A stretch of DNA of 32,000 bases from an archaeon GW2011_AR10. GTDB lineage: Archaea; Iainarchaeota; Iainarchaeia; Iainarchaeales; GW2011-AR10. Every line of letters starts with the position of its first letter. Position 1 is the stretch's first letter. A program made the position numbers and the translations under genes. Shown one piece after another: positions 13,942 to 30,313 of the stretch. The DNA is taken from NCBI GenBank assembly GCA_000830275.1, contig CP010424.1, positions 1,080,001 to 1,112,000 on the forward strand, read 5' to 3'. The notes under the pieces were generated by a model. It was given only the letters and a program-made list of their open reading frames with translations, was not told the DNA's origin and made no database searches.

Positions 13942-14409
13942 TCAGATTCTTACTTCAACTTCATCAGCGGTAATTTTTTGAACAATAACCCTTTTCATCT
14001 GCGGTCCCTCAATTTCTGTGCCGTTAATACAGCGAAGCGTTATTTCTTCCAATATATCAAGGTCAAGAGCGCATTTTCCTGTGGCATCACAGGCAGGGTG
14101 CGATAAATCAGTGTTTATAAGCTCTGTTTCAAATCCAATCTTTTTTGTTGCTTCTTTGCAAAGCACTTTGCTTCCAGCTGGAACAAAAACAGTTATTGTC
14201 TGCTTGGTGTCAATGCCAAGTGTTCCTACAAGGTTTGTTGTATTAGCGATTTTTTCGGCTGCAAGCCTTGCTTCAGCCAGCCGTGCAACCTCTTTTGCAC
14301 TGTCAACTGCAAGATTCACGTTTGGCTGGATAATTGTCTGAATGAACAGCAGCATTACTGCTACAAGGAAAATGAACTCGATTGCTGCCTGCCCTCTATT
14401 GCCTTTCAC
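13942..14409 (-). CDS. Type IV pilin-like protein (class III signal peptide)
   Basis: The GTG at 14409 overlaps the peptidase TGA stop (GTGA). It gives MKGNRG|QAAIEFIFLVAVMLLF, with Gln at +1 and Glu at +5. The track start is a TTG at 14424. Confidence 0.75.
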   Translation of the reverse strand: MKGNRGQAAIEFIFLVAVMLLFIQTIIQPNVNLAVDSAKEVARLAEARLAAEKIANTTNLVGTLGIDTKQTITVFVPAGSKVLCKEATKKIGFETELINTDLSHPACDATGKCALDLDILEEITLRCINGTEIEGPQMKRVIVQKITADEVEVRI

Positions 14410-15524
14410 AGAAAAAAATTCCAAACCAAATCACCAACCAACTGAAGCAAAATATATGCAATTAATACTGCCGGAACAAACGGCACTGACTTTTTTACCG
14501 CCAGTTTGTTTTCAAGCTTTTTTTCATTCACCAGCTTTTTTAATTCCCTTATCTGCTCTTCTGTGAGACCACCTGCGGCCCTGCTGCTTGCAAGGATTCT
14601 TCCAGAAGGCCAAATCAGGCGCCTGACAGCGTCTACATTATTATTTCTGAAGTGCTTTATAATTGTTCCGATGCCTGCTTTTTCAAGCCTTTTCACTTTC
14701 CCTTTTTCTTCCACAATTGTTTCCCCGGAAATCATTCCCTCTTCCAGGGCAGTTATTTTAACGTTCTCTGCCAAAATTTCCCTGCTTGCAAAGTAAAGCT
14801 TCAGCAGCAGGAACAGGAAAAGCAGAGGCAGAAAAACCATTAAAGCGCCCTGAAGCGCAGAAACATAGTCAGTGTACAGCGCAAACGCAAAAACCACGGC
14901 TACAACAACGGCACTGATTTTTTTTCTCAAAAAACCAATTGCAAGCAGCATTGGCAGCACAAACAGTGCATCAAGCCTCATTGCTGCAACAACCGCGCTT
15001 AAGCCAGCAACTAATATGCTGAAAGCCGCCAGATGAACAAACCTCTTTTTTATTTCAGCAAAAACTTTTTCCGAAAGGTCCTTGTTTTTTGCAATGCCGT
15101 TCAGTGAAATCATTGCACCGTAGGGGAACATTGCGAATACGCTGAAAACAAAAAGCCAGAACGGGAAAACAGGCAAATGAATTGAAGCAAATAACGCCCC
15201 GTTCAACCCAATTAAATCCCTTAATACTCCGTAATTAACGGGGTTCAATGCTGCGAGGCCAGTGAAAAGCTTTACATCGCCTCCAGCCCACACGCCGAGC
15301 TTCCACAGCAGCATTGCTCCGAGGAACGTTCCAATTGTTGCAATTCCAGAAAACAATATGAAGCCAAAATCATCAGTTAGAAATGAAAGGAACAAATGCA
15401 GGAGCAGCCCCAGCGCAATCATGGAGTAAGTTATTTTGTCTGAAACAATCCTTTCCCTTAAATCAGTGTAGGTTGCAACAGCAAGCAGGATAAAGGAAAT
15501 AGAGAAAAAGAGAGCGGCTGCCAA
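14406..15524 (-). CDS. A24-family prepilin/preflagellin peptidase (PibD/EppA/FlaK class) with extended C-terminal region
   Basis: Two catalytic Asp motifs are present: ATYTDLRERIVSD near the N-terminus, and WAGGDVKLF (the GxGD type). 372 aa, multi-TM, with a soluble insert of about 95 aa before the last TM. The start is TTG. Confidence 0.85.
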   Translation of the reverse strand: MAAALFFSISFILLAVATYTDLRERIVSDKITYSMIALGLLLHLFLSFLTDDFGFILFSGIATIGTFLGAMLLWKLGVWAGGDVKLFTGLAALNPVNYGVLRDLIGLNGALFASIHLPVFPFWLFVFSVFAMFPYGAMISLNGIAKNKDLSEKVFAEIKKRFVHLAAFSILVAGLSAVVAAMRLDALFVLPMLLAIGFLRKKISAVVVAVVFAFALYTDYVSALQGALMVFLPLLFLFLLLKLYFASREILAENVKITALEEGMISGETIVEEKGKVKRLEKAGIGTIIKHFRNNNVDAVRRLIWPSGRILASSRAAGGLTEEQIRELKKLVNEKKLENKLAVKKSVPFVPAVLIAYILLQLVGDLVWNFFL

Positions 15525-15536
15525 AACAACCCGCCC

Positions 15537-15710
15537 TTAGTTTTCAAGTAGAGAGCTTATTGTCGAGTCCCTGCTTTCAAGTATTTGCTGCTGTGCAACG
15601 TTTGAAACTGTCACAACCTGTAAAGCGATGACTGAAGCAGCCAGCACCAACAGCAACGCAAATGTTACTGTTATGAGGTATTCAAACGAAACCTGTGCTC
15701 GCTGCTCCAT
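15537..15710 (-). CDS. Small class III signal peptide pilin
   Basis: The ATG at 15710 gives MEQRA|QVSFEYLITVTFALLLVLAASVIAL, with Gln at +1 and Glu at +5. About 57 aa. Confidence 0.75.
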   Translation of the reverse strand: MEQRAQVSFEYLITVTFALLLVLAASVIALQVVTVSNVAQQQILESRDSTISSLLEN

Positions 15711-15728
15711 GGAGATCACTTAACCCTG

Positions 15729-16076
15729 TTATACTCCAGCGCCTGGAGCGTTACAATTGGATGTTGGTATGAGTGGTGCTACTGGTGTTGGGTCATATCT
15801 TGATTTACAGACTGTACTTGGTGCTGTTCCTGCAGGGCCGCAATAACATGTAACATTGTCTGGACCTATAACTTGTATTGAACCAACTAGCACATTAGTG
15901 CAACTCGTAGTTGTTGCCGGGTATTTTATGCACAAAGCATCAAATGCTTGTTTTTTTGATTCTGTTCCTCCGCTGCTTCCTAACCCTGATATTACACTGA
16001 TGACTATCACTGCAACAAGCACTGCTCCGCCGATTAACAGCAGGTATTCAAGTGCACCTTGTCCTTTTTTTTGCAT
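15729..16076 (-). CDS. Class III signal peptide pilin; candidate major pilin with Cys/Pro/Thr-rich globular part
   Basis: N-terminus MQKKG|QGALEYLLLIGGAVLVAVIVISVI, with Gln at +1 and Glu at +5. There are six Cys in the C-terminal 65 aa. It has its own promoter-like region and a strong SD. Confidence 0.85.
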   Translation of the reverse strand: MQKKGQGALEYLLLIGGAVLVAVIVISVISGLGSSGGTESKKQAFDALCIKYPATTTSCTNVLVGSIQVIGPDNVTCYCGPAGTAPSTVCKSRYDPTPVAPLIPTSNCNAPGAGV

Positions 16077-16154: not shown

Positions 16155-16334
16155 TTAAGGCGTTGATTCGAAGCCTGTAACTGTTCTTTCAAGTTCTTCC
16201 TTTGCTTCCTGCTGGCCTGTTGTTGCAATGCTTTTCAAGTACAAGCCAATTATTGCTGCTGTAAGAGTTATTCCGCCCAAAATCAGCAGCAGTTCAACTG
16301 AACTCTGCGCTCTTTCCTCCTTCAATAGCCTCAT
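16155..16334 (-). CDS. Small class III signal peptide pilin (59 aa; absent from the ORF track)
   Basis: Hand translation gives MRLLKEERA|QSSVELLLILGGITLTAAIIGLYLKSIATTGQQEAKEELERTVTGFESTP*. The ATG at 16334 directly follows the upstream stop (16335-16337). Confidence 0.75.
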   Translation of the reverse strand: MRLLKEERAQSSVELLLILGGITLTAAIIGLYLKSIATTGQQEAKEELERTVTGFESTP

Positions 16335-17267
16335 TTAACTCACCAAGTTCATTGAAAGCAATTGCCCTAAAATATAGGTAGTGTAAGCCACAAGTAATAG
16401 GATTGGAAAGTATATAATGCTTTTGCTTATCCTGCCCTCCCTCATAATTGCAATTACTAGGCTTGCTGCAAAAACCTCTACAAGGAGGTAAATTTGGATG
16501 CCTAGGTTAATGATGCTGCTTGCGCTCTCAGCCCTCTGAATAATCAACTGGTCTTTGCTTATTTTTGCTGCAGTGCTTATCAGCACTGAGCTTATTGTTG
16601 CCACGAAACCGAAAATTAGTGGCGCAACGAAGCCTCCAGCAGCAACCATGAACAGCACTTGGAGAATTGTCCTAGTTTTTCTTTCAGCATTAATTCTGTG
16701 GATTGCCCTTACATCCTCGCTTATTTCATCCAGAATGTCCGCGAGGCCTGCTCCTGCTTTCACTGAGTCAATTATGATTGTGACGGTTCTCTTCACAAGC
16801 CTTGAGTCCACGTTCTGGCTTAAAGAGCTTAGCGCTGTTTCAAAGTTGTCTCCTTCCTCAAGTTTTCTAAGAACAGTGTTGATTTCTTTTTTCAAATAAC
16901 CATATTCAGCGCTTGCAACTTCTCGCAATGCATACTCGTAAGTGCCACCAGCCCTTAAAGTGTCAGCCATCTGCTTTAATGCATCAGAAAGGTTCCTTTC
17001 AATGTCGTCAATCCTCTGCGATGCCTTAAGGTAAGGGTAGCCAATCATTATATCGGCTATTACAAGGAACATAATAATTCCAAGCTGCCAGAGCTCTGGC
17101 ACCAACAGAATTATTGCCGCACCAACAACAAACGAGACAAGGAATGAAAGAATTATCCAAAGTACTGGGTCAACCTTGAAGTCTATTTGCTTCAAGTAAA
17201 GAGAGTACTTTTTTAGGAAACCGATTCTTTCCAGCAGCGGGATTTTTTTGGTTAAGTCAAGTGTCAT
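16335..17267 (-). CDS. Type II secretion system F-domain membrane protein (TadC/FlaJ-half-like pilus platform protein)
   Basis: 310 aa with a single T2SS-F-like cytoplasmic helical domain (LSDALKQMADTLRAGGTYEYALREVA) flanked by TM segments. Confidence 0.8.
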   Translation of the reverse strand: MTLDLTKKIPLLERIGFLKKYSLYLKQIDFKVDPVLWIILSFLVSFVVGAAIILLVPELWQLGIIMFLVIADIMIGYPYLKASQRIDDIERNLSDALKQMADTLRAGGTYEYALREVASAEYGYLKKEINTVLRKLEEGDNFETALSSLSQNVDSRLVKRTVTIIIDSVKAGAGLADILDEISEDVRAIHRINAERKTRTILQVLFMVAAGGFVAPLIFGFVATISSVLISTAAKISKDQLIIQRAESASSIINLGIQIYLLVEVFAASLVIAIMREGRISKSIIYFPILLLVAYTTYILGQLLSMNLVS

Positions 17268-17270
17268 TCA

Positions 17271-18434
17271 TCACACCCTCGGTTGGACAAATTTCAGGTA
17301 AACAAGCAAAAGCGCAATAACAAGCGGCATTATCAGCGCGTAAAAGATTATTATAAACTGTGGAGTAAGCTGGAATGCCTGTGAAAAGTTTACTCCTAAT
17401 GGTGCATTGGTTACTGCGCCAATTATTGCTACAAAAACAGGCAGAACAATTGCACCGAAAATGAATATTACCCCAAAAAAATTCATTTTTTCCGCGAAGT
17501 CCCTTATCTTCATTCTCAGCTCGAATGAAACGTCCTCAGCGATTTCCCCCATAACGTTTGAAAGGTTGCCGCCGGTTTTAAGCGCCCTGATGACGTGGAA
17601 CAAGGCGCTCCTCAGCGCTCTTGACTGGGTTCTCAGCGCGAAGTGCCTTAACGCGTCTTTAGTGTCAGTGCCCTCCTCTATCTCATTAATTGTTCTTGAA
17701 AACTCGTCTGATAAAACCCCGTAATCTGACTGCGCTATTGCCTGCAGCGCTTTGTAGAGGCCTATTCCTGCCTTTAATTCTGTTGCCATGTGCCTTAATG
17801 CGAAAGGAAGTTCAACACTCATTTCGTCGCCTCTTCTTTGAGCAATTGTCTTGGGTATAATCATCACAAGTATGAGCGTAATGAAGAAGAACAGGATTCC
17901 AATCAACAGCGCGCTCCAGATGGGCCATGCCCATAAAAACGAGACTATTGCCCCTATGACCATTCCAAAAATCAGGCCTATTGCGGCTGAAGCAACGCTT
18001 AATGCAAGGTATTGCTGCGCTGAAAACTTCATGTTTGCGCTGTAAAGGTAGTATGCTAACTCTTTTGCTATTGGAAACCTCCTGAGGTTTCGGGTTAGTG
18101 GCTTGAATAGGAACTGGAATGAGAGGTAAAAGTTTCCAAGCTGCCTTATTATTGGGGATCTAAACTCTTTCAGCTCTTCAACAGGCTGAACGTTTATTTT
18201 TGCTGCTTCCCCTTCCGCTATTATGCCGCGCAGCTCGCTAAGCCTTCCCCCAACTTCTTCAAATTCAATGCCTTGCTCGCGGTACTTTTTCTTCATTTTG
18301 GCGACTATTTTTTCAACCTGCTCCAGGTCAACGGTTTCCGGCTCGGCTAATTCATCCTTTCCAGGGGCTTTTATGTCTGCCTTCTTGCTCTCAATTTTTT
18401 TCCTTAAGTCATCAATTGAAGGCACGCTTTCCAC
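17271..18434 (-). CDS. Type II secretion system F-domain membrane protein (TadB/FlaJ-half-like pilus platform protein)
   Basis: 387 aa. The T2SS-F-like block is LPFALRHMATELKAGIGLYKALQAIAQSDYGVLSDEF plus TM segments. The start is GTG and overlaps the ATPase stop region. Confidence 0.8.
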   Translation of the reverse strand: MESVPSIDDLRKKIESKKADIKAPGKDELAEPETVDLEQVEKIVAKMKKKYREQGIEFEEVGGRLSELRGIIAEGEAAKINVQPVEELKEFRSPIIRQLGNFYLSFQFLFKPLTRNLRRFPIAKELAYYLYSANMKFSAQQYLALSVASAAIGLIFGMVIGAIVSFLWAWPIWSALLIGILFFFITLILVMIIPKTIAQRRGDEMSVELPFALRHMATELKAGIGLYKALQAIAQSDYGVLSDEFSRTINEIEEGTDTKDALRHFALRTQSRALRSALFHVIRALKTGGNLSNVMGEIAEDVSFELRMKIRDFAEKMNFFGVIFIFGAIVLPVFVAIIGAVTNAPLGVNFSQAFQLTPQFIIIFYALIMPLVIALLLVYLKFVQPRV

Positions 18435-21400
18435 CCCTGCTCAGCAGGTATTTTTCGCATTCAGTTGAAACCCTGTTTATGTCCCTTACATCAGTTTCAA
18501 CCAACTTCTTTAACACTTTTTCCCTTTCCTTAATTTCCGCTTCAATCTGTTTTCTTTGCATTCCTGTAAACCTTTCAAGCACTTTGAGGTAATTAACTGG
18601 CGCACTTGTTCTCTTTAAACTGTCCGTTGCGGCATCATACTCGAATATTGCCTGGGTTTTTGTTTTTCCTTCAAGCACGCCGTATACCTCAGAAATTTCT
18701 GTAATCCTCCTGATAGTACCCTTCTTTTTGTCGTGTAGCCTGTGCTCAACAATTATGAAGTCAAGGCCGCTCATCATTATTTCCGGCACGTTCATCGGGG
18801 GAGAAGTAATCCTTACAATTGTTTCCTCCGGCGAATTAGCGTGAACTGTGCCAAGGCAGTTTGAAACAAATAGGCCGTTTGCAATGTAATTGTGGTTGTC
18901 TTTTACAGTCAAGTCATACATATAACCATTGAACTCTTCTTCTTCAATTTTCACAATTTCCTCAAATCGGAAATCTGAATTGACTAGCATTAAAACCTCT
19001 TTGCCCATTGAAGTGTTAGCGGTAATATTTGCGATTTTTTCTAGCTGGTTTCTTGAAGGGCTTCTTTTATTTGTTTCATATGCCTCAATGGTTGACCTTG
19101 TCTGCGTTCCCATTAATGAAGCCAGTTCTGTTTGCGTCATTGAAGCATCATTTCTTGCTTTTCTAATCAGTGCAGAAATTTTTGGGAACAAATCTTTTGC
19201 ATTTTTTGAACTTAAAATTAATTTTTCAAGTTTTTTACTTTTTTCAGCATGCCCAAATCCTATTTTGTTTGCAAATTTTTCTAAATTGTCCTTTCCATAA
19301 ATTGATACCCTATAATATGGCCCAATTTTTCCTTTTCCGTCCCTTTCTTGGGTGTTTAGCGATGAATGAATGCCAAATCTTTGAATTATCATTGGAAGCT
19401 TTCTGGCTATCCTGGGGTTGGAGGTTGAAAACTGAATTGATTGAGAGTGAAGATTTACGTGAGCATCTGCATCAAATAAGCCCCTGATAAGTTTTCCAAG
19501 CCCTGATTGGCTCGCGGTCAAAACTTTTTTATTTAATTCAAAAATTTTTGTCTTGTTTCCAAGAGGGATGTCATATTCGTTTACGATTTTTTTGACCAAT
19601 TTTTTGTCATAAACATTTACTCTTGAAAAGCCACCGAAATCTTTGATTGAAATCTTATTTTTTGTAACTTCCCCAATTCCCCTTTCAAAACTTTGTATAA
19701 GGGACGGTTCTTTGTTAACAAACTGGATTCCTTCGCTGTGGATGTGCCCGTCTCCGTAAATTAAACCCATAAGATACGGTTTAATTATTTCTTCACTTGC
19801 ATTAATTGGAATTTGCTTTGGAAACGCAATAAAGTCCCCTTTTTTTGCTTCTTCTGCATTTATTTCCTGAATGCCATTGTTTATTCTGTAAATGGGGTGG
19901 TCTTCAGTTAACCTAATTTCTTTGCCTGACTTGGTTTTAATTCTTCTAATTTTTTGTCTTGCATTTTTTCTCCAAACCCTTATTACTGGGTTATCCTCAA
20001 TTTTAAACGTTTTTTTGTTGAAGCTTGGGACAAATATTTCCCCCTTAATATCAACAAATTCAAAGTCCCCTTCTTTTAAGGGATTTTTTTCCATGAATTT
20101 ATTTTCAACAAAATTTCCTATTTCCTCAATGTTGCCATTAGAAAACTGAATTAATGTATCGCCTGTTGTTGCACCATCATGGCCCGTATTCATTGCAGTG
20201 AACAATGAGAATGCCTCATCGTGCCTTATTTCTCCTACAATTATCCTGTCAGGCCTCATCCTCAAAGAGTTCTTGGTTAAAATGTCAAGGCTTATTTCTC
20301 CTGTTCCTTCAATGCCCGGCGGCCTTCCCTCAAACCTTATCCAGTGCTTGAGCGGAAGATTCAATTCAGCAGTGTCTTCGATTGAAATAATTCTCTCGTG
20401 CCTTGGAATAAATGATGCCAGCACGTTCAATGTTGTTGTTTTGCCGCTTCCAGTGCCGCCTGAAATGACAATGTTTGCAGGCTTCACTCCCATGCCTTCA
20501 ACGCAAGCCCACAGAAAAGCTGAGGCTTCCAGTGTCACAGTGTTCATTTTAATCAAATCAATCATGGAGAAAGGGTCTCCCCTAAATTTCCTGATAGTTA
20601 AAGTTGCACCGCTGACTGAAGCCGGAGGGATTGTTGCGTTGACCCTGCTGCCGTCAGGCAGCCTTGCATCCAGAAGAGGAGCCGAAATGTCAATCCTTCT
20701 TCCCACTTGCCGTGCAATCCTGTTAACCAAGTCAATTATTTCTTGGTCAGAGAAAAACTCAATGTTTGTTGTCATCATCTCATACTGCCTGTGGAAAACG
20801 TAAACAGGCTGGCCTTGGCCGATAACCATTATTTCCTCAAGTTTGTCGTCGTTAACCAGCGGGTCAATCATGCCGTAGCCAACCATTTCTCTTACAACTG
20901 CATCAGCGTAAAAGTCAAACCTTGAGGCAGGAATGTTTAATTCAGGCGAGCTGCGTATTATCTCCATTATTCGCTGATAGTAAACGTTTCTTTTCTGCTC
21001 CGGGTCCCTGATTTTGTAAGGAGTGATGCTGATAATTCTTGTTGCCGCTTCCTTTATGGTGTTAATGATTGTTTTCTCTGTGCCAGCGGAGCGCGGCACC
21101 GGAGTCCAATAGTATAGCAGGGGCTCCCCCTCAACCCTGTAAATTTTTATGTTCCCATAAGAGTCTATTTCCTCCTTTTCTGCCTGCTCCATTTGTTTTT
21201 CGGTTTTGGATTTGGCTGTCTTAACTGGAAGGCGCTGTTCAGTTGCAGGGGCAACTTCCAAAGCCTCTTGTTCTGTTTCCTTAACTGCTTCGGGTTTTTT
21301 TCTGGAGCTCGGTTCCTTTACTGATTCCCTTGGAATAACAATTTTTGTAAAAATTTTTGCAGGCTTAAACGGTTCTATTTCAGCAGGGGCTGCTTTGCGT

Positions 21401-21567
21401 TGAGCTTCTCCCTCCGGCATCCTTTTGAGGGCCTCAATGATTTTCTGCTTCTTTTGTTCCTTCTCTTCCTCGGCTTTTGAGTCAGCAACGCCTGCCTTTT
21501 TCTTCTTCATTTGCTCAATCAAGTCACCCATATAGCTAGGCATGGCTAATCCATTATGAAGACGCAT
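18412..21567 (-). CDS. FlaI/VirB11/TadA-family type IV filament assembly ATPase, interrupted by an intein (613-aa extein)
   Basis: Walker A GGTGSGKTT lies at nt 20434-20460. Walker B and Asp box read RMRPDRIIVGEIR. The His box NTGHDG is split from CLGTVHANS by 438 aa. There is a K/E-rich N-terminal extension of about 140 aa. A TATA-like GTTTAAATAA (21573-21582) sits only 6 nt from the first ATG, so the true start may be the ATG at 21543 (MPSYMGD). Confidence 0.9.
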   Translation of the reverse strand: MRLHNGLAMPSYMGDLIEQMKKKKAGVADSKAEEEKEQKKQKIIEALKRMPEGEAQRKAAPAEIEPFKPAKIFTKIVIPRESVKEPSSRKKPEAVKETEQEALEVAPATEQRLPVKTAKSKTEKQMEQAEKEEIDSYGNIKIYRVEGEPLLYYWTPVPRSAGTEKTIINTIKEAATRIISITPYKIRDPEQKRNVYYQRIMEIIRSSPELNIPASRFDFYADAVVREMVGYGMIDPLVNDDKLEEIMVIGQGQPVYVFHRQYEMMTTNIEFFSDQEIIDLVNRIARQVGRRIDISAPLLDARLPDGSRVNATIPPASVSGATLTIRKFRGDPFSMIDLIKMNTVTLEASAFLWACVEGMGVKPANIVISGGTGSGKTTTLNVLASFIPRHERIISIEDTAELNLPLKHWIRFEGRPPGIEGTGEISLDILTKNSLRMRPDRIIVGEIRHDEAFSLFTAMNTGHDGATTGDTLIQFSNGNIEEIGNFVENKFMEKNPLKEGDFEFVDIKGEIFVPSFNKKTFKIEDNPVIRVWRKNARQKIRRIKTKSGKEIRLTEDHPIYRINNGIQEINAEEAKKGDFIAFPKQIPINASEEIIKPYLMGLIYGDGHIHSEGIQFVNKEPSLIQSFERGIGEVTKNKISIKDFGGFSRVNVYDKKLVKKIVNEYDIPLGNKTKIFELNKKVLTASQSGLGKLIRGLFDADAHVNLHSQSIQFSTSNPRIARKLPMIIQRFGIHSSLNTQERDGKGKIGPYYRVSIYGKDNLEKFANKIGFGHAEKSKKLEKLILSSKNAKDLFPKISALIRKARNDASMTQTELASLMGTQTRSTIEAYETNKRSPSRNQLEKIANITANTSMGKEVLMLVNSDFRFEEIVKIEEEEFNGYMYDLTVKDNHNYIANGLFVSNCLGTVHANSPEETIVRITSPPMNVPEIMMSGLDFIIVEHRLHDKKKGTIRRITEISEVYGVLEGKTKTQAIFEYDAATDSLKRTSAPVNYLKVLERFTGMQRKQIEAEIKEREKVLKKLVETDVRDINRVSTECEKYLLSRGGKRAFN
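18859..20172 (-). mobile_element. 438-aa intein with LAGLIDADG homing-endonuclease domain and an XRE-type HTH; starts with Ala1, ends Ser-Asn, +1 Cys
   Basis: Junctions were read from the DNA: ...AMNTGHDG|ATTGDTLIQFSNG... and ...HNYIANGLFVSN|CLGTVHANS. Block A is xxxGDTLI and block B is RLTEDHP. The LAGLIDADG motifs are YLMGLIYGDGHI and LIRGLFDADAHV. Blocks F and G are YMYDLTVKDNHNYIANGLFVSN. Confidence 0.85.
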
Positions 21568-21673: not shown

Positions 21674-22804
21674 TCATTTAGTGGCTTGCGCTTCCTGTTT
21701 TCCCATGAAGCCGTCAAGCACATTTAGGTTAAAGTTGAACAGGAAAACGTAAACAGGAGTTAAAACTAGCAGAATCACATACTGCAGTGCCACAAAAATT
21801 GCAATCAAAATCGTGGCTCCACCCAGTGCAACAACAATTAATAGCGCCATATTTCCCTGCAGCACCGGGTAAAGCAGAACGCCTAGTGCGATCACTGCAA
21901 TCATAAGAAAAACCGTGAAAATTGCCACAAAAAGCCCTATGATAAAGGCTAGTCCCATCAAAACAAGCAAGAACGCTATCTGCAATGCAATCAAAATGAC
22001 TAGCTCTACGGGTTTGCTGAAACCTATTAGAATTCCCTGCAATAGTGCGCTGAAAGCATTAATGTTTTTCCTGTACATCAAATAAACGCCGAACTGCCCC
22101 AAAAAATAATTCACCGCTGCAAAGAATACCAATCCGATAATTCCTACAACTGCCAGGAGCACAAGCGTGCTCGAGTCCTTCAAGAAAGCAAGCTGCGGCA
22201 GAACGCTTTCAAGCCCCAAGCCAGGTGAAAATAGATTCCAGAAAAAGCCAATCAATGCAAGAACCAAGAAAACAAGAAACGGAAGCATGGCAAGAAAAAT
22301 CATTGTTTCAAGCAGTGAGAGGCTGAATCCCTTTGAAATGTTTGATGGAATTGATCGAACGCTTACTTCGCCTGTTTCAGCGCCTCTTATTGCGGAAAAC
22401 ATTGCTGCGTTCCCCAAAATCCTTAAAAAAAACATAATGACGAACAGCACTATTAACACAACGATTATCCAGAAAATTATTCCTTCAAAATTAATTTCCG
22501 AATCATTAAGCACTGCTAAAGCGCTTGCAATTGTATCGACATTGTTTTCTTCCTGTGCAACTGAAGAGCTGATGCCATTTTCGAGGCCGCCTGATGGTCT
22601 TTCCTGCAGCACATCAAAAAAACCTGAAAAATCTCCTGAACCAAAATTGAAGTTTGCCCCACTATAGAAGCCGCTGCCAGTGAAAAGAGTGAAAACAAGG
22701 AGAATGAAAGCAAATCGCAGCCACCTTCCAACCATGTTCGGTTTGTTAAAGAAGGCTTCTGTCTGCTTGAAGCTTTTTCCCAGTGCATCAGTTGCGATCG
22801 GCAT
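21674..22804 (-). CDS. Polytopic membrane protein, function unknown
   Basis: 376 aa with 8 or more hydrophobic segments. It lies immediately upstream of the pilus ATPase in the same orientation. No recognisable catalytic motif. Confidence 0.6.
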   Translation of the reverse strand: MPIATDALGKSFKQTEAFFNKPNMVGRWLRFAFILLVFTLFTGSGFYSGANFNFGSGDFSGFFDVLQERPSGGLENGISSSVAQEENNVDTIASALAVLNDSEINFEGIIFWIIVVLIVLFVIMFFLRILGNAAMFSAIRGAETGEVSVRSIPSNISKGFSLSLLETMIFLAMLPFLVFLVLALIGFFWNLFSPGLGLESVLPQLAFLKDSSTLVLLAVVGIIGLVFFAAVNYFLGQFGVYLMYRKNINAFSALLQGILIGFSKPVELVILIALQIAFLLVLMGLAFIIGLFVAIFTVFLMIAVIALGVLLYPVLQGNMALLIVVALGGATILIAIFVALQYVILLVLTPVYVFLFNFNLNVLDGFMGKQEAQATK

Positions 22805-28565: not shown

Positions 28566-30194
28566 TCAAGCCTTTGCATCCAATAAAATGAATTCCGCGT
28601 TTTCATCCATTAATGCTTCAAGTTCTTTTATGCTGTTGCATGAGTGCAACCGCAAAAAATTTTTCTTGAATGGCGCGAGAGCATTTCCTTTTGCTTCCGG
28701 CACTTCAGCAAAAAACTTTCGGTTAACTTCCGCAAATTTGGCTATGCCGGCGGCGTCGCTGAACTCATTCACAACCCACTTGTTTCCTGTGCTTTTGAGG
28801 ACTGCTGAAAGCATTTTTTCCGCGAGCTTTGCGTTTCCTTCCCCGCCAAGATTCATTGCTGCGCTCTCAAGGCCATAGATTCCCAGGGCTGGCACAAATT
28901 TTTCTATTTCAATTTCGTTCTCTTTAAGGTAAGGCTTTTCCGATAGAATGGTTTCCTTTAAATCAGCTGCTGCCTTGAATTCACCAAGTGTTTCCTCAAG
29001 CAATTCAAAGAAGCCGTTTTCCTGCGAGTCAAAAGCCATTTTTTCGAGGTTTAATCCAAAATACTGGCTGATGCCCTGGCCTTTATCCAGATAAATTTTC
29101 TCAGTTAAAGGTACAACTCTCTGCTTTGAGCAGTTGAGGAAAAGAAGCCCTTTTTCAAGCAGCGGCCGGTCAATGAGCTTCAGCCTAAATTTTGAATCGC
29201 ATGAAACCGCAATAGAAAAATTGAATTCCGACCTGTTTTCATTAAATGTGTGGATTGTTTCCAAGGCGAAATCAACTGCATCATCTATTTGGGCAGGGCT
29301 TAAGTCCAATTCTCCATCAGAGAAGAGGTCAAGGCCTAGCACTGGTTTAACATCCGTGCATTCGAAAAGTGCCCTGTCAACCTGCCCCAACAGCATCAGC
29401 GCATAAAACCGTTTCTTTTTCTTCGAGCTTTTCCCTAGCAGCTTGGCAAAAGAAAAATTTGCCGAACGTGCAGCCGGAGCCAGCGAAGAAAATTTTTTTA
29501 ATGCGCCAAGTTTTTTTCCAAACTCAATTACTGCATTTTCAATTGAGGTTGAATTTAACTTCAAAAAAGTTGACTGTGCATAAGGCTTCGAGCTGAAGTC
29601 CTCCGCTGCGACAATGTGGGCCAAGGAGTCAAAATGGAGCTGCCTTGCTTTTTCCGGAATCGCTTCAAGCCAGTTGAATTCCAGGAGTATGTCCTTGTTC
29701 TCGTAAATGCCTCTGCTTAACTTTTTTTTGACGTCAAAAACCGGGAGGCCGAGCCTTGCATACTGCCTGTGTGCTTCTTCCTGCCCGAACTCCAGCAGCT
29801 TGACATTAACCATTTCCCTGATTAATGCGGTATTCAAGTAATTTATGTTTAGGTCCTTTATTTTGTCTTCAACTTCGGCACCAATTTTTTCTGCGGTTGT
29901 TCTGCTCAAAGTCGTTTCTTTCAGGAGTGAGTGAATTATGTTGCCTCTGTCAAAACTTTCTCTTACGCCGCTGGAAGTGTACACACTCAGCTTCTCGAAT
30001 GATGAATACACTTCCGCTGCCTTGGGGTTGATTTCTCTCAGCAGCTCAACCGCTTTTTTTCTGAGTTTTTTCTCTGGCTGCTTTTCGTTTTCAAGCCCCT
30101 TGATTATTTTTAGGATATCCCATTTTGTAGCGCCGGCTTCCTGGAATTCCTTTGCAATCTTTTCAACTGTTTCCTTTACTGGGCTTCCATCCAT
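28566..30194 (-). CDS. ATP-cone domain protein with degenerate NrdD-like (class III RNR) N-terminal architecture; no glycyl-radical or Zn-ribbon C-terminus
   Basis: ATP-cone-like repeats are present: AVELLREINPKAAEVYSSF, and VRESFDRGNIIHSLLKE...TAEKIGAEVEDKI...LIREMVNVKLLEFGQEEAHRQY. LHFDSLAHIVAAEDFSSKPY resembles the NrdD aHxxGxIhiHDLxxxxxpYC block but has lost the His-Asp and Cys. The ATG is at 30194; the track start at 30242 is a TTG. Confidence 0.6.
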   Translation of the reverse strand: MDGSPVKETVEKIAKEFQEAGATKWDILKIIKGLENEKQPEKKLRKKAVELLREINPKAAEVYSSFEKLSVYTSSGVRESFDRGNIIHSLLKETTLSRTTAEKIGAEVEDKIKDLNINYLNTALIREMVNVKLLEFGQEEAHRQYARLGLPVFDVKKKLSRGIYENKDILLEFNWLEAIPEKARQLHFDSLAHIVAAEDFSSKPYAQSTFLKLNSTSIENAVIEFGKKLGALKKFSSLAPAARSANFSFAKLLGKSSKKKKRFYALMLLGQVDRALFECTDVKPVLGLDLFSDGELDLSPAQIDDAVDFALETIHTFNENRSEFNFSIAVSCDSKFRLKLIDRPLLEKGLLFLNCSKQRVVPLTEKIYLDKGQGISQYFGLNLEKMAFDSQENGFFELLEETLGEFKAAADLKETILSEKPYLKENEIEIEKFVPALGIYGLESAAMNLGGEGNAKLAEKMLSAVLKSTGNKWVVNEFSDAAGIAKFAEVNRKFFAEVPEAKGNALAPFKKNFLRLHSCNSIKELEALMDENAEFILLDAKA

Positions 30195-30313
30195 AACTAC
30201 ATTAGTGTGCCAAAAAAGTTTAATTAAAATCCCAGAAAACAAACCACTGCTTTTGAAAAGCTAACTTTTTATACCTTTTGTGTTTGAATTACTAATGAAT
30301 TGTTGGTGTGTTT

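Follow-up and report, generated by a model that had tools for sequence, protein, structure and literature searches.

A probable class 2, KlbA-family intein with endonuclease and XRE-type helix-turn-helix modules in the pilus-like ATPase gene of an Iainarchaeota/Diapherotrites-like archaeon

To our knowledge, class 2 is the rarest of the three classes into which inteins fall by mechanism and has been studied in essentially one protein, the KlbA intein of Methanocaldococcus jannaschii (MJ0781; 2JMZ/2JNQ); five KlbA orthologues had reportedly been counted in 2009. Here we analyze a 32,000-nucleotide (nt) stretch of contig CP010424.1 (assembly GCA_000830275.1, archaeon GW2011_AR10; positions 1,080,001 to 1,112,000), hereafter the window, in which the ATPase gene of a pilus-like operon is interrupted by an insert. 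We consider it highly probable that the insert is a full-length class 2 intein of the KlbA family, placed in the His box of the ATPase (NTGHDG/CLGTVHA; a slash marks a splice junction) in the genome of an Iainarchaeota/Diapherotrites-like archaeon of the DPANN group, and that it would both splice and home.

In the class 2 route, Cys+1 makes a direct attack on the amide of the N-terminal junction (PMC4031507; PMC2807308). A 2014 review described all class 2 inteins as orthologues of the M. jannaschii KlbA intein, all of them with Ala1 and with Ser at position G:6 (PMC4031507), and Asp147 (F:4) and Tyr156 (F:15), along with the Thr and His of block B, are important in the prototype (PMC2807308). 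The window intein has the same host family and the same insertion site as this prototype, with an MNTGHDG N-extein and a C/S-x-G-T-x-H C-extein, and both proteins carry Ala1, the TxxH of block B, the YDLTV..H.Y of block F, a Ser-Asn end and Cys+1. The M. jannaschii protein is, however, a 168-amino acid (aa) mini-intein of a methanogen without endonuclease or helix-turn-helix (HTH) modules, whereas the intein of the DPANN archaeon spans 438 aa and has both. Class 3 inteins (mycobacteriophage Bethlehem DnaB intein type) likewise lack a nucleophilic Ser or Cys at the N-terminus, yet they carry a Trp(B:12)-Cys(F:4)-Thr(G:5) triplet (WCT), usually with Thr or Ser at +1 (PMC2807308). The corresponding residues of the window intein are Ile94, Asp420 and Val436, followed by Cys+1. 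The missing triplet rules out a class 3 reading, in agreement with an earlier note on this DNA, made from the sequence alone, which had seen no block F Cys of the WCT type.

Boundaries and class signature of the insert

The precursor gene lies on the minus strand and is divided as follows:

18412..21567, minus strand: open reading frame (ORF) for the pilus/secretion ATPase precursor, 1051 aa, with coordinates that include the stop codon; uninterrupted, with no stop or frameshift in 3156 nt
20173..21567, minus strand: N-extein, aa 1-465 (Pfam T2SSE at aa 232-468 and orthologue alignment)
18859..20172, minus strand: intein, 438 aa, precursor aa 466-903, from Ala1 (GCA, 20170-20172) to Asn438 (AAC, 18859-18861)
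18415..18858, minus strand: C-extein, aa 904-1051, opening with Cys+1 (TGC, 18856-18858) and then LGTVHANSP, which completes the His box
19798..20172, minus strand: N-terminal HINT half, intein aa 1-125 (2JMZ alignment; AlphaFold beta strands E7-E118)
20134-20172, minus strand: block A, ATTGDTLIQFSNG
19888-19926, minus strand: block B, GKEIRLTEDHPIY, with Thr89 and His92
18859..18978, minus strand: C-terminal HINT half, intein aa 399-438
18880-18924, minus strand: block F, YMYDLTVKDNHNYIA, with Asp420, His427 and Tyr429
18859-18879, minus strand: block G, NGLFVSN, with Ser437 and Asn438

Removal of the 438-aa insert at 18859-20172 restores the ATPase motif, as the earlier note had claimed; intein blocks A, B, F and G and two LAGLIDADG motifs, also claimed there, were all found at the expected places and were accompanied by matches to Pfam and NCBIfam intein models. 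Intein_splicing covers precursor aa 488-903 (Pfam, 4.2e-25), and the NCBIfam models intein_Nterm and intein_Cterm both score above their curated cut-offs. The N-extein closes with AMNTGHDG and the intein opens with ATTGDTLIQ (GCA ACA ACA GGC GAT); at the other end, the intein closes with NGLFVSN before the Cys (TGC) of CLGTVHANSP, which confirms the Ser-Asn/Cys junction that had been read from the sequence (VSN/C, 18856-18867). With the host motif restored on removal and with blocks A, B, F and G in a HINT fold, the stretch 18859-20172 is an intein.

To check the boundaries, we searched with the spliced exteins and recovered as the best 118 orthologues proteins sharing 67-76% identity over 97-100% of the query, most of them from metagenome-assembled genomes (MAGs) of Diapherotrites/Iainarchaeota type. 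NTGHxG was joined directly to x[LMIFC]G[TS][VIL]H, with no break, in 116 of the 118, and the C-extein opened with Cys, Ser or Thr in 115 of those 116. Nineteen of the 118 read exactly NTGHDG-CLGTVHANS and are thus identical to the host sequence once the insert is removed. The 2JMZ chain aligned over both junctions (MNTGHDG/ALAYDEPIY...GFAVS(A)/(S)SGTLH against MNTGHDG/ATTGDTLIQ...GLFVSN/CLGTVH), and a blastp search with the first 125 aa of the intein (154 library hits) placed Ala1 in register with the Cys1 of class 1 relatives at other sites, as in ATTGDTLIQ and CVSGDTLIQ. Further, the lowest-GC stretch of 1314 nt in the whole 32 kb begins at 18851, that is, on the intein. The boundaries are therefore fixed by four independent lines: the orthologues, the KlbA precursor, the class 1 register and base composition. 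The Ala at position 1 that had been noted earlier (GCA, 20170-20172, aligned with Ala1 of 2JMZ and with class 1 Cys1) stands, and the alignment with KlbA and other inteins, which had been suggested as a check of site and boundaries, confirmed both and placed no Cys, Ser or Thr at position 1. A class 1 reading is discarded on the same grounds, with Ala rather than Cys or Ser at position 1 and shifted boundaries excluded.

The best match in the PDB was the precursor of the M. jannaschii KlbA intein (2JMZ/2JNQ), with an E-value of 4.1e-29 when the whole intein was the query, of 4.9e-41 when a HINT-only construct was, and with about 44-50% identity over the HINT domain. Judged by its sequence, the insert is homologous to the KlbA intein of M. 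jannaschii and occupies the identical insertion site, a stronger statement than the "KlbA-like" of the earlier note. With the intein as query, HMMER returned 3835 hits in an exhaustive search through 1.84 billion representatives (a word-indexed homologue search gave only 5), and the top scorers (P0006, P0001 and P0007-P0012) all interrupt T2SSE ATPases at the NTGH[DEN]G site. At the same site, a homologue from Methanocaldococcus sp. 16A (P0004) reads NTGHDG/ALAYDEPIY...IIVSN/CSGTLHANSA. The 12 best HINT-N matches among the 154 library hits were all at the NTGHxG site and all had Ala at the start; the next-best were at P-loop sites and all started with Cys in the same register.

The C-terminal junction follows the insertion site as well: the ending SN/C was found in 17 of 20 inteins at the KlbA site, and HN/T, HN/S or HN/C in 146 relatives elsewhere. 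Residues H92, P93, Y419, D420, L421, T422, G433 and N438 are invariant in an alignment of 21 sequences from this site and T89, H427, Y429 and S437 nearly so; D420 and Y429 are the counterparts of Asp147 (F:4) and Tyr156 (F:15) in the M. jannaschii protein. The class 2 signature is complete, with Ala1, Thr89 and His92 in block B, Asp420 and Tyr429 in block F, Ser437-Asn438 and Cys+1. The earlier note had treated the penultimate Ser, in place of His, as a further anomaly; Ser437 is indeed present, yet it is part of the definition of class 2 (PMC4031507) and specific to the family at the KlbA site.

Position 1 varies among the relatives at this site. We observed Val in P0010 and P0012, Met in P0011 and in L002:3001-4311 and Arg in P0241, as well as Ala1 combined with His-Asn/Cys in P0009. 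One protein, P0080, is class 1-like, with Cys1 and Gly-Asn/Ser, and is 29% identical over the full length. The Val, Met, Arg and Cys residues contrast with the reviews, in which class 2 is uniformly Ala1 and Ser G:6.

Endonuclease and accessory modules, mobility and origin

Between its two HINT halves the intein carries two further modules:

19210..19785, minus strand: LAGLIDADG homing-endonuclease domain, intein aa ~130-321 (Pfam LAGLIDADG_3 and Hom_end; Foldseek)
19741-19776, minus strand: LAGLIDADG motif 1, YLMGLIYGDGHI (LMGLIYGDG)
19456-19491, minus strand: LAGLIDADG motif 2, LIRGLFDADAHV (IRGLFDADA)
18982..19176, minus strand: XRE-type HTH accessory domain, intein aa ~333-397, between the endonuclease and the C-terminal HINT strands

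The LAGLIDADG_3 model matches precursor aa 693-770 (Pfam, 5.6e-18), both acidic catalytic positions of the motifs are occupied by Asp and the domain is well conserved in six or more full-length relatives. HTH_3 matches precursor aa 801-848, equivalent to intein aa 336-383 or 19024-19167, above its cut-off (Pfam, 8.2e-09). Among the 21 inteins at the KlbA site, 15 had LAGLIDADG_3 and 14 had HTH_3. An AlphaFold model of the intein, built from a 17-sequence alignment, was confident throughout (predicted local distance difference test, 93.1; predicted TM-score, 0.90) and contained HINT strands at 7-118 and 401-437, a two-motif LAGLIDADG domain at 132-321 and a five-helix bundle at 333-397 that matches the position of HTH_3. 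When compared to the PDB with Foldseek, the model was closest to the TliVMA intein (7QSS; TM 0.80/0.81), followed by PI-PfuI (1DQ3), PI-TkoII (2CW7) and PhoVMA (7QST); M. jannaschii KlbA (2JMZ) matched over the HINT part only (44% identity), and the endonuclease domain also matched the fold of I-DmoI. Its sequence and its alpha-beta-beta-alpha-beta-beta-alpha fold both identify the endonuclease as a two-motif LAGLIDADG monomer, and the intein is made of three modules: HINT, LAGLIDADG endonuclease and XRE-type HTH accessory domain.

The same three-module layout, with an HTH-like accessory domain before the C-terminal HINT part, is found in TliVMA, PI-PfuI, PI-TkoII and PhoVMA. These are, however, class 1 inteins (Cys1, His-Asn) of other host genes, only 14-19% identical to the window intein, and they differ from it in the accessory domain, which in the window intein is a genuine Pfam HTH_3 (XRE) domain. 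Closer in kind are two inteins of 520-526 aa (P0062 and P0066), which look like the endonuclease-containing Pab, Pfu and Pho KlbA inteins of Thermococcales in InBase. Like the window intein, both occupy the KlbA site, carry Ala1 and SN/C and have a LAGLIDADG domain and then an HTH-like segment before the C-terminal HINT part; they are only 30-32% identical to it overall and have about 60 additional aa inserted between HINT-N and the endonuclease. The HTH domain was not mentioned in the earlier note. It is no novelty, given that accessory domains are described between the endonuclease and the C-terminal HINT part, HTH-like in TliVMA and PI-TkoII (Beyer et al., 2022; PMC8966425), and that our model superimposes on TliVMA. 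Other relatives at the KlbA site are mini-inteins without endonuclease (P0003, P0028 and P0004), and one of 236 aa (P0014) has lost the LAGLIDADG domain and kept the HTH, which hints that the HTH may be kept there for something other than homing.

An intein at the KlbA site was present in just 3 of the 118 closest host orthologues, leaving about 115 without one. The closest exteins (P0155 and P0156, ~76% identical) have no intein and the more distant P0006 (73%) has one, so the distribution does not simply match the host phylogeny. Base composition also sets the intein apart: its GC content is 34.2% (30.6% at third codon positions, GC3) against 44.8% (GC3 46.7%) in the exteins. The mean over the other 29 genes in the window is 42.7 +/- 1.7% GC, which gives the intein a z of -5.2, and its GC3 is below that of every one of them. 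Low GC and patchy distribution point to a mobile, horizontally acquired element. Full-length relatives 58-59% identical to the intein come from Iainarchaeum MAGs of 33-37% GC (L001-L003), where intein and extein do not differ in GC; this indicates that the element came horizontally from relatives of lower GC. It need not have been acquired recently, because the syntenic locus L009 (L009:7345-8658) shows the same deficit (intein GC 37.1% against 45.5% in the extein; GC3 38.1 against 47.1). For the same reason, we do not take the deficit as proof of a recent invasion.

Additional inteins were observed in the related loci. The orthologous ATPase of L001 (L001:166-4737; MAG JBDRFE010000005.1) carries two, one at the KlbA site and a second that looks like class 1 (Ser1...VFVHN/T). 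This second intein is inserted in RIVTIED/TAELNLP, where the window gene is uninterrupted (RIISIEDTAELNLP). A distant LAGLIDADG intein (24% identity; Cys1...VHN/S) occupies the P-loop (GAGK/C) of a large bacterial ATPase of Candidatus Amesbacteria (L004:3001-4731); relatives of this intein lineage thus occur in bacteria of the candidate phyla radiation (CPR) as well.

Proposed splicing and homing, and other readings

We infer that the precursor would splice by the class 2 route and that the free intein would act as an endonuclease. By the biochemistry of M. jannaschii KlbA, Ala1 would exclude an N-S acyl shift after translation. Instead, the thiol of Cys904 (+1) would directly attack the amide between Gly465 (-1) and Ala466 (1), producing a branched thioester at block G with no linear thioester, and cyclization of Asn438 (precursor Asn903) to a succinimide would release the intein. 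An S-to-N shift would then join Gly465 to Cys904 and yield an active ATPase of 613 aa with an intact His box and with NTGHDGCLGTVHANSPEETIVR as the predicted ligated junction peptide. The unspliced precursor is expected to be inactive and pilus assembly would therefore depend on splicing. Once free, the intein would probably home, as an endonuclease that cleaves intein-free alleles at the sequence coding for NTGHDG/CLGTVH. The putative intein-free cleavage target is ATGAATACGGGCCATGATGGT/TGCCTTGGCACAGTTCACGCT and the putative reconstituted homing site is TTCACTGCAATGAATACGGGCCATGATGGT/TGCCTTGGCACAGTTCACGCTAATTCGCCG, with the HTH module perhaps contributing DNA contacts. Such homing activity is proposed as the cause of the patchy distribution and foreign base composition.

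Several points weigh against this reading. Splicing and homing are deduced from the sequence and from what is published on the M. jannaschii orthologue, and two conserved LAGLIDADG Asp residues do not prove activity: the PhoVMA intein has an inactive endonuclease despite a good fold (PMC8966425). The deficit in L009 (37% against 45.5%) shows foreign origin or weak amelioration and not necessarily a recent invasion. In addition, the Lys/Asn/Ile-rich composition of the intein explains part of its GC deficit, although its GC3 is still the lowest. Finally, our view covers 32 kb of the genome, and a second, intein-free ATPase paralogue could lie elsewhere.

This last point would suit a degenerate, non-splicing remnant in a dead ATPase gene whose function is supplied by a paralogue, as would the slower and more fragile splicing of class 2 than class 1 inteins in vitro. 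We consider such a remnant quite unlikely. Over its 3156 nt the ORF is free of stops and frameshifts, and its DNA is identical in at least three independent metagenome assemblies (two in ENA and one 167-kb JGI contig), so the insert is no assembly artifact; the exact precursor protein is present on 17 contigs. All splicing residues that matter in M. jannaschii KlbA are conserved in a model that is confident throughout, the exteins are 73-76% identical to intein-free orthologues with Walker A, Walker B and His box kept and the gene stands at the head of a pilus operon that is complete in other respects and conserved in synteny. A canonical class 1 intein whose true N-terminus lies one or two residues further in, with Thr2 or Thr3 of ATTGD as the nucleophile and Ala left in the mature ATPase, seems hardly credible. 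Positions 2 and 3 are both Thr, which is chemically capable of an N-O shift, yet the intein-free orthologues pass directly from NTGHxG to C/S/T-[LM]-G-T with no additional Ala or Ala-Thr, and the relatives show no conserved nucleophile at positions 2-3 (AL-A, AV-I, AI-I, AL-N, AQ-R). Moreover, Ala1 matches in one register both the Ala1 of 2JMZ and the Cys1 of class 1 relatives, and Thr1 is essentially unused in known inteins, which start with Ser or Cys (PMC2807308).

A splicing intein with an inactive endonuclease, fixed and vertically inherited as a passenger whose HTH is a relic or has a non-homing role, is the alternative that we take most seriously, though we regard it as somewhat unlikely. 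The syntenic L009 has the same intein at 68% identity and with a similar GC deficit, compatible with a common ancestor; relatives at the KlbA site include the mini-inteins and the HTH-only P0014 described above; and inactive endonucleases with intact folds are documented (PMC8966425). Both catalytic Asp residues are nonetheless present here, in a domain conserved in six or more full-length relatives, and the presence of the intein in P0006 and its absence from the closer P0155 and P0156 do not simply follow the host phylogeny. One more reading we judge improbable. Under it, class 2 splicing could be conditional (e.g., on Cys+1 redox state or temperature) and gate pilus assembly, the excised HINT-endonuclease-XRE-HTH protein could be a sequence-specific DNA-binding regulator, or mechanisms beyond Ala1 and Ser G:6 could operate. 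There is room for such functions and mechanisms because P0014 keeps the HTH alone and because catalytic positions vary at this site (Val1, Met1, Arg1, Ala1 with His-Asn and Cys1 with Gly-Asn/Ser). The KlbA-family class 2 intein with splicing and homing remains the reading that we favor.

Pilus-like operon and significance

The ATPase heads a complete archaeal type IV pilus-like operon. Its N-extein comprises a Lys/Glu-rich N-terminal extension, GGTGSGKTT, RPDRIIVGEIR and NTGHDG; in the motif names used for secretion ATPases, the last three are Walker A, Walker B and the first half of the His box. The extension (21177-21567, minus strand) is a low-complexity segment of about 130 aa, rich in Lys, Glu and Ala, that precedes the conserved core. 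The true start of the protein is possibly the ATG at 21543 (MPSYMGDLIEQ) rather than 21567, going by the N-termini of homologues (MPNYLKDL, MAKYLSDL). The T2SSE match to precursor aa 232-468 (Pfam, 3.6e-39) and the pilus operon neighbors bear out the assignment of the host as a pilus/secretion ATPase in the earlier note. When scored against the NCBIfam models for FlaI, TadA and VirB11, the spliced ATPase matched below the equivalog cut-offs; we therefore claim only superfamily membership. With a T2SSE domain, Walker A, Walker B, a His box and pilus neighbors, the host protein is an archaeal type IV pilus-like assembly ATPase of the Tad/CpaF/FlaI superfamily. The genes downstream are:

17271..18434, minus strand: T2SSF (TadB/C-like) membrane protein whose start overlaps the ATPase stop codon (Pfam T2SSF, 3.2e-21)
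16335..17267, minus strand: second T2SSF membrane protein (Pfam T2SSF, 2.8e-17)
16155-16334, minus strand: small pilin-like gene, 59 aa, class III signal peptide (RAQ/SSVELLLILGG)
15729-16076, minus strand: small pilin-like gene, 115 aa, class III signal peptide (GQ/GALEYLLLIGG)
15537-15719, minus strand: small pilin-like gene, 60 aa, class III signal peptide (RAQ/VSFEYLI)
14406..15524, minus strand: archaeal prepilin peptidase (Pfam Peptidase_A24 and Arc_PepC)
13942..14424, minus strand: further protein, possibly pilin-like (Pfam Class_IIIsignal, 2.6e-4, sub-threshold at 21.3 bits against a cut-off of 23.7)

The three small pilin-like ORFs fill what looks like a gap between the second T2SSF gene and that of the prepilin peptidase, and the Pfam Class_IIIsignal model matches their syntenic counterparts in L009; the 115-aa ORF has a Cys/Pro/Thr-rich C-terminal part. 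The same pilus gene order accompanies the 68%-identical intein of P0006 in GCA_043816965.1 (locus L009). Elsewhere the window carries archaeal housekeeping genes (ELP3, a Pelota/eRF1-like protein, the RFC small subunit, Nre and threonyl-tRNA synthetase, ThrRS). A DUF7544 polytopic membrane protein (21674-22804, minus strand) lies between ThrRS and the ATPase; it is kept in the identical contigs L006-L008 and is not present in the syntenic L009. A 558-aa ORF (28566-30242, minus strand) had no NCBIfam match, and its sole recognizable domain is an N-terminal ATP-cone (Pfam, 5.8e-08), leaving about 400 aa unassigned. Scans of the 32-kb window for tRNAs and Rfam families found nothing.

A literature search on inteins in DPANN archaea returned nothing specific to KlbA inteins. 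The intein is a further member of the characterized KlbA/class 2 family, expected rather than surprising, and a KlbA-type intein in DPANN does not overturn current understanding. It extends the class 2 family to Iainarchaeota/Diapherotrites-like archaea with a full-length member that has an apparently intact endonuclease, an XRE-type accessory domain and signs of horizontal spread, and it adds naturally occurring class 2 sequences to those available for engineering or for work on mechanism. The relatives also form a natural series, all of them at the KlbA site, in which position 1 is Ala, Val, Met, Arg or Cys and G:6 is Ser, His or Gly; the series could serve to study the origin of the class 2 route from class 1. 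In the organism itself, the assembly of a type IV pilus-like surface structure should need a post-translational splicing step.

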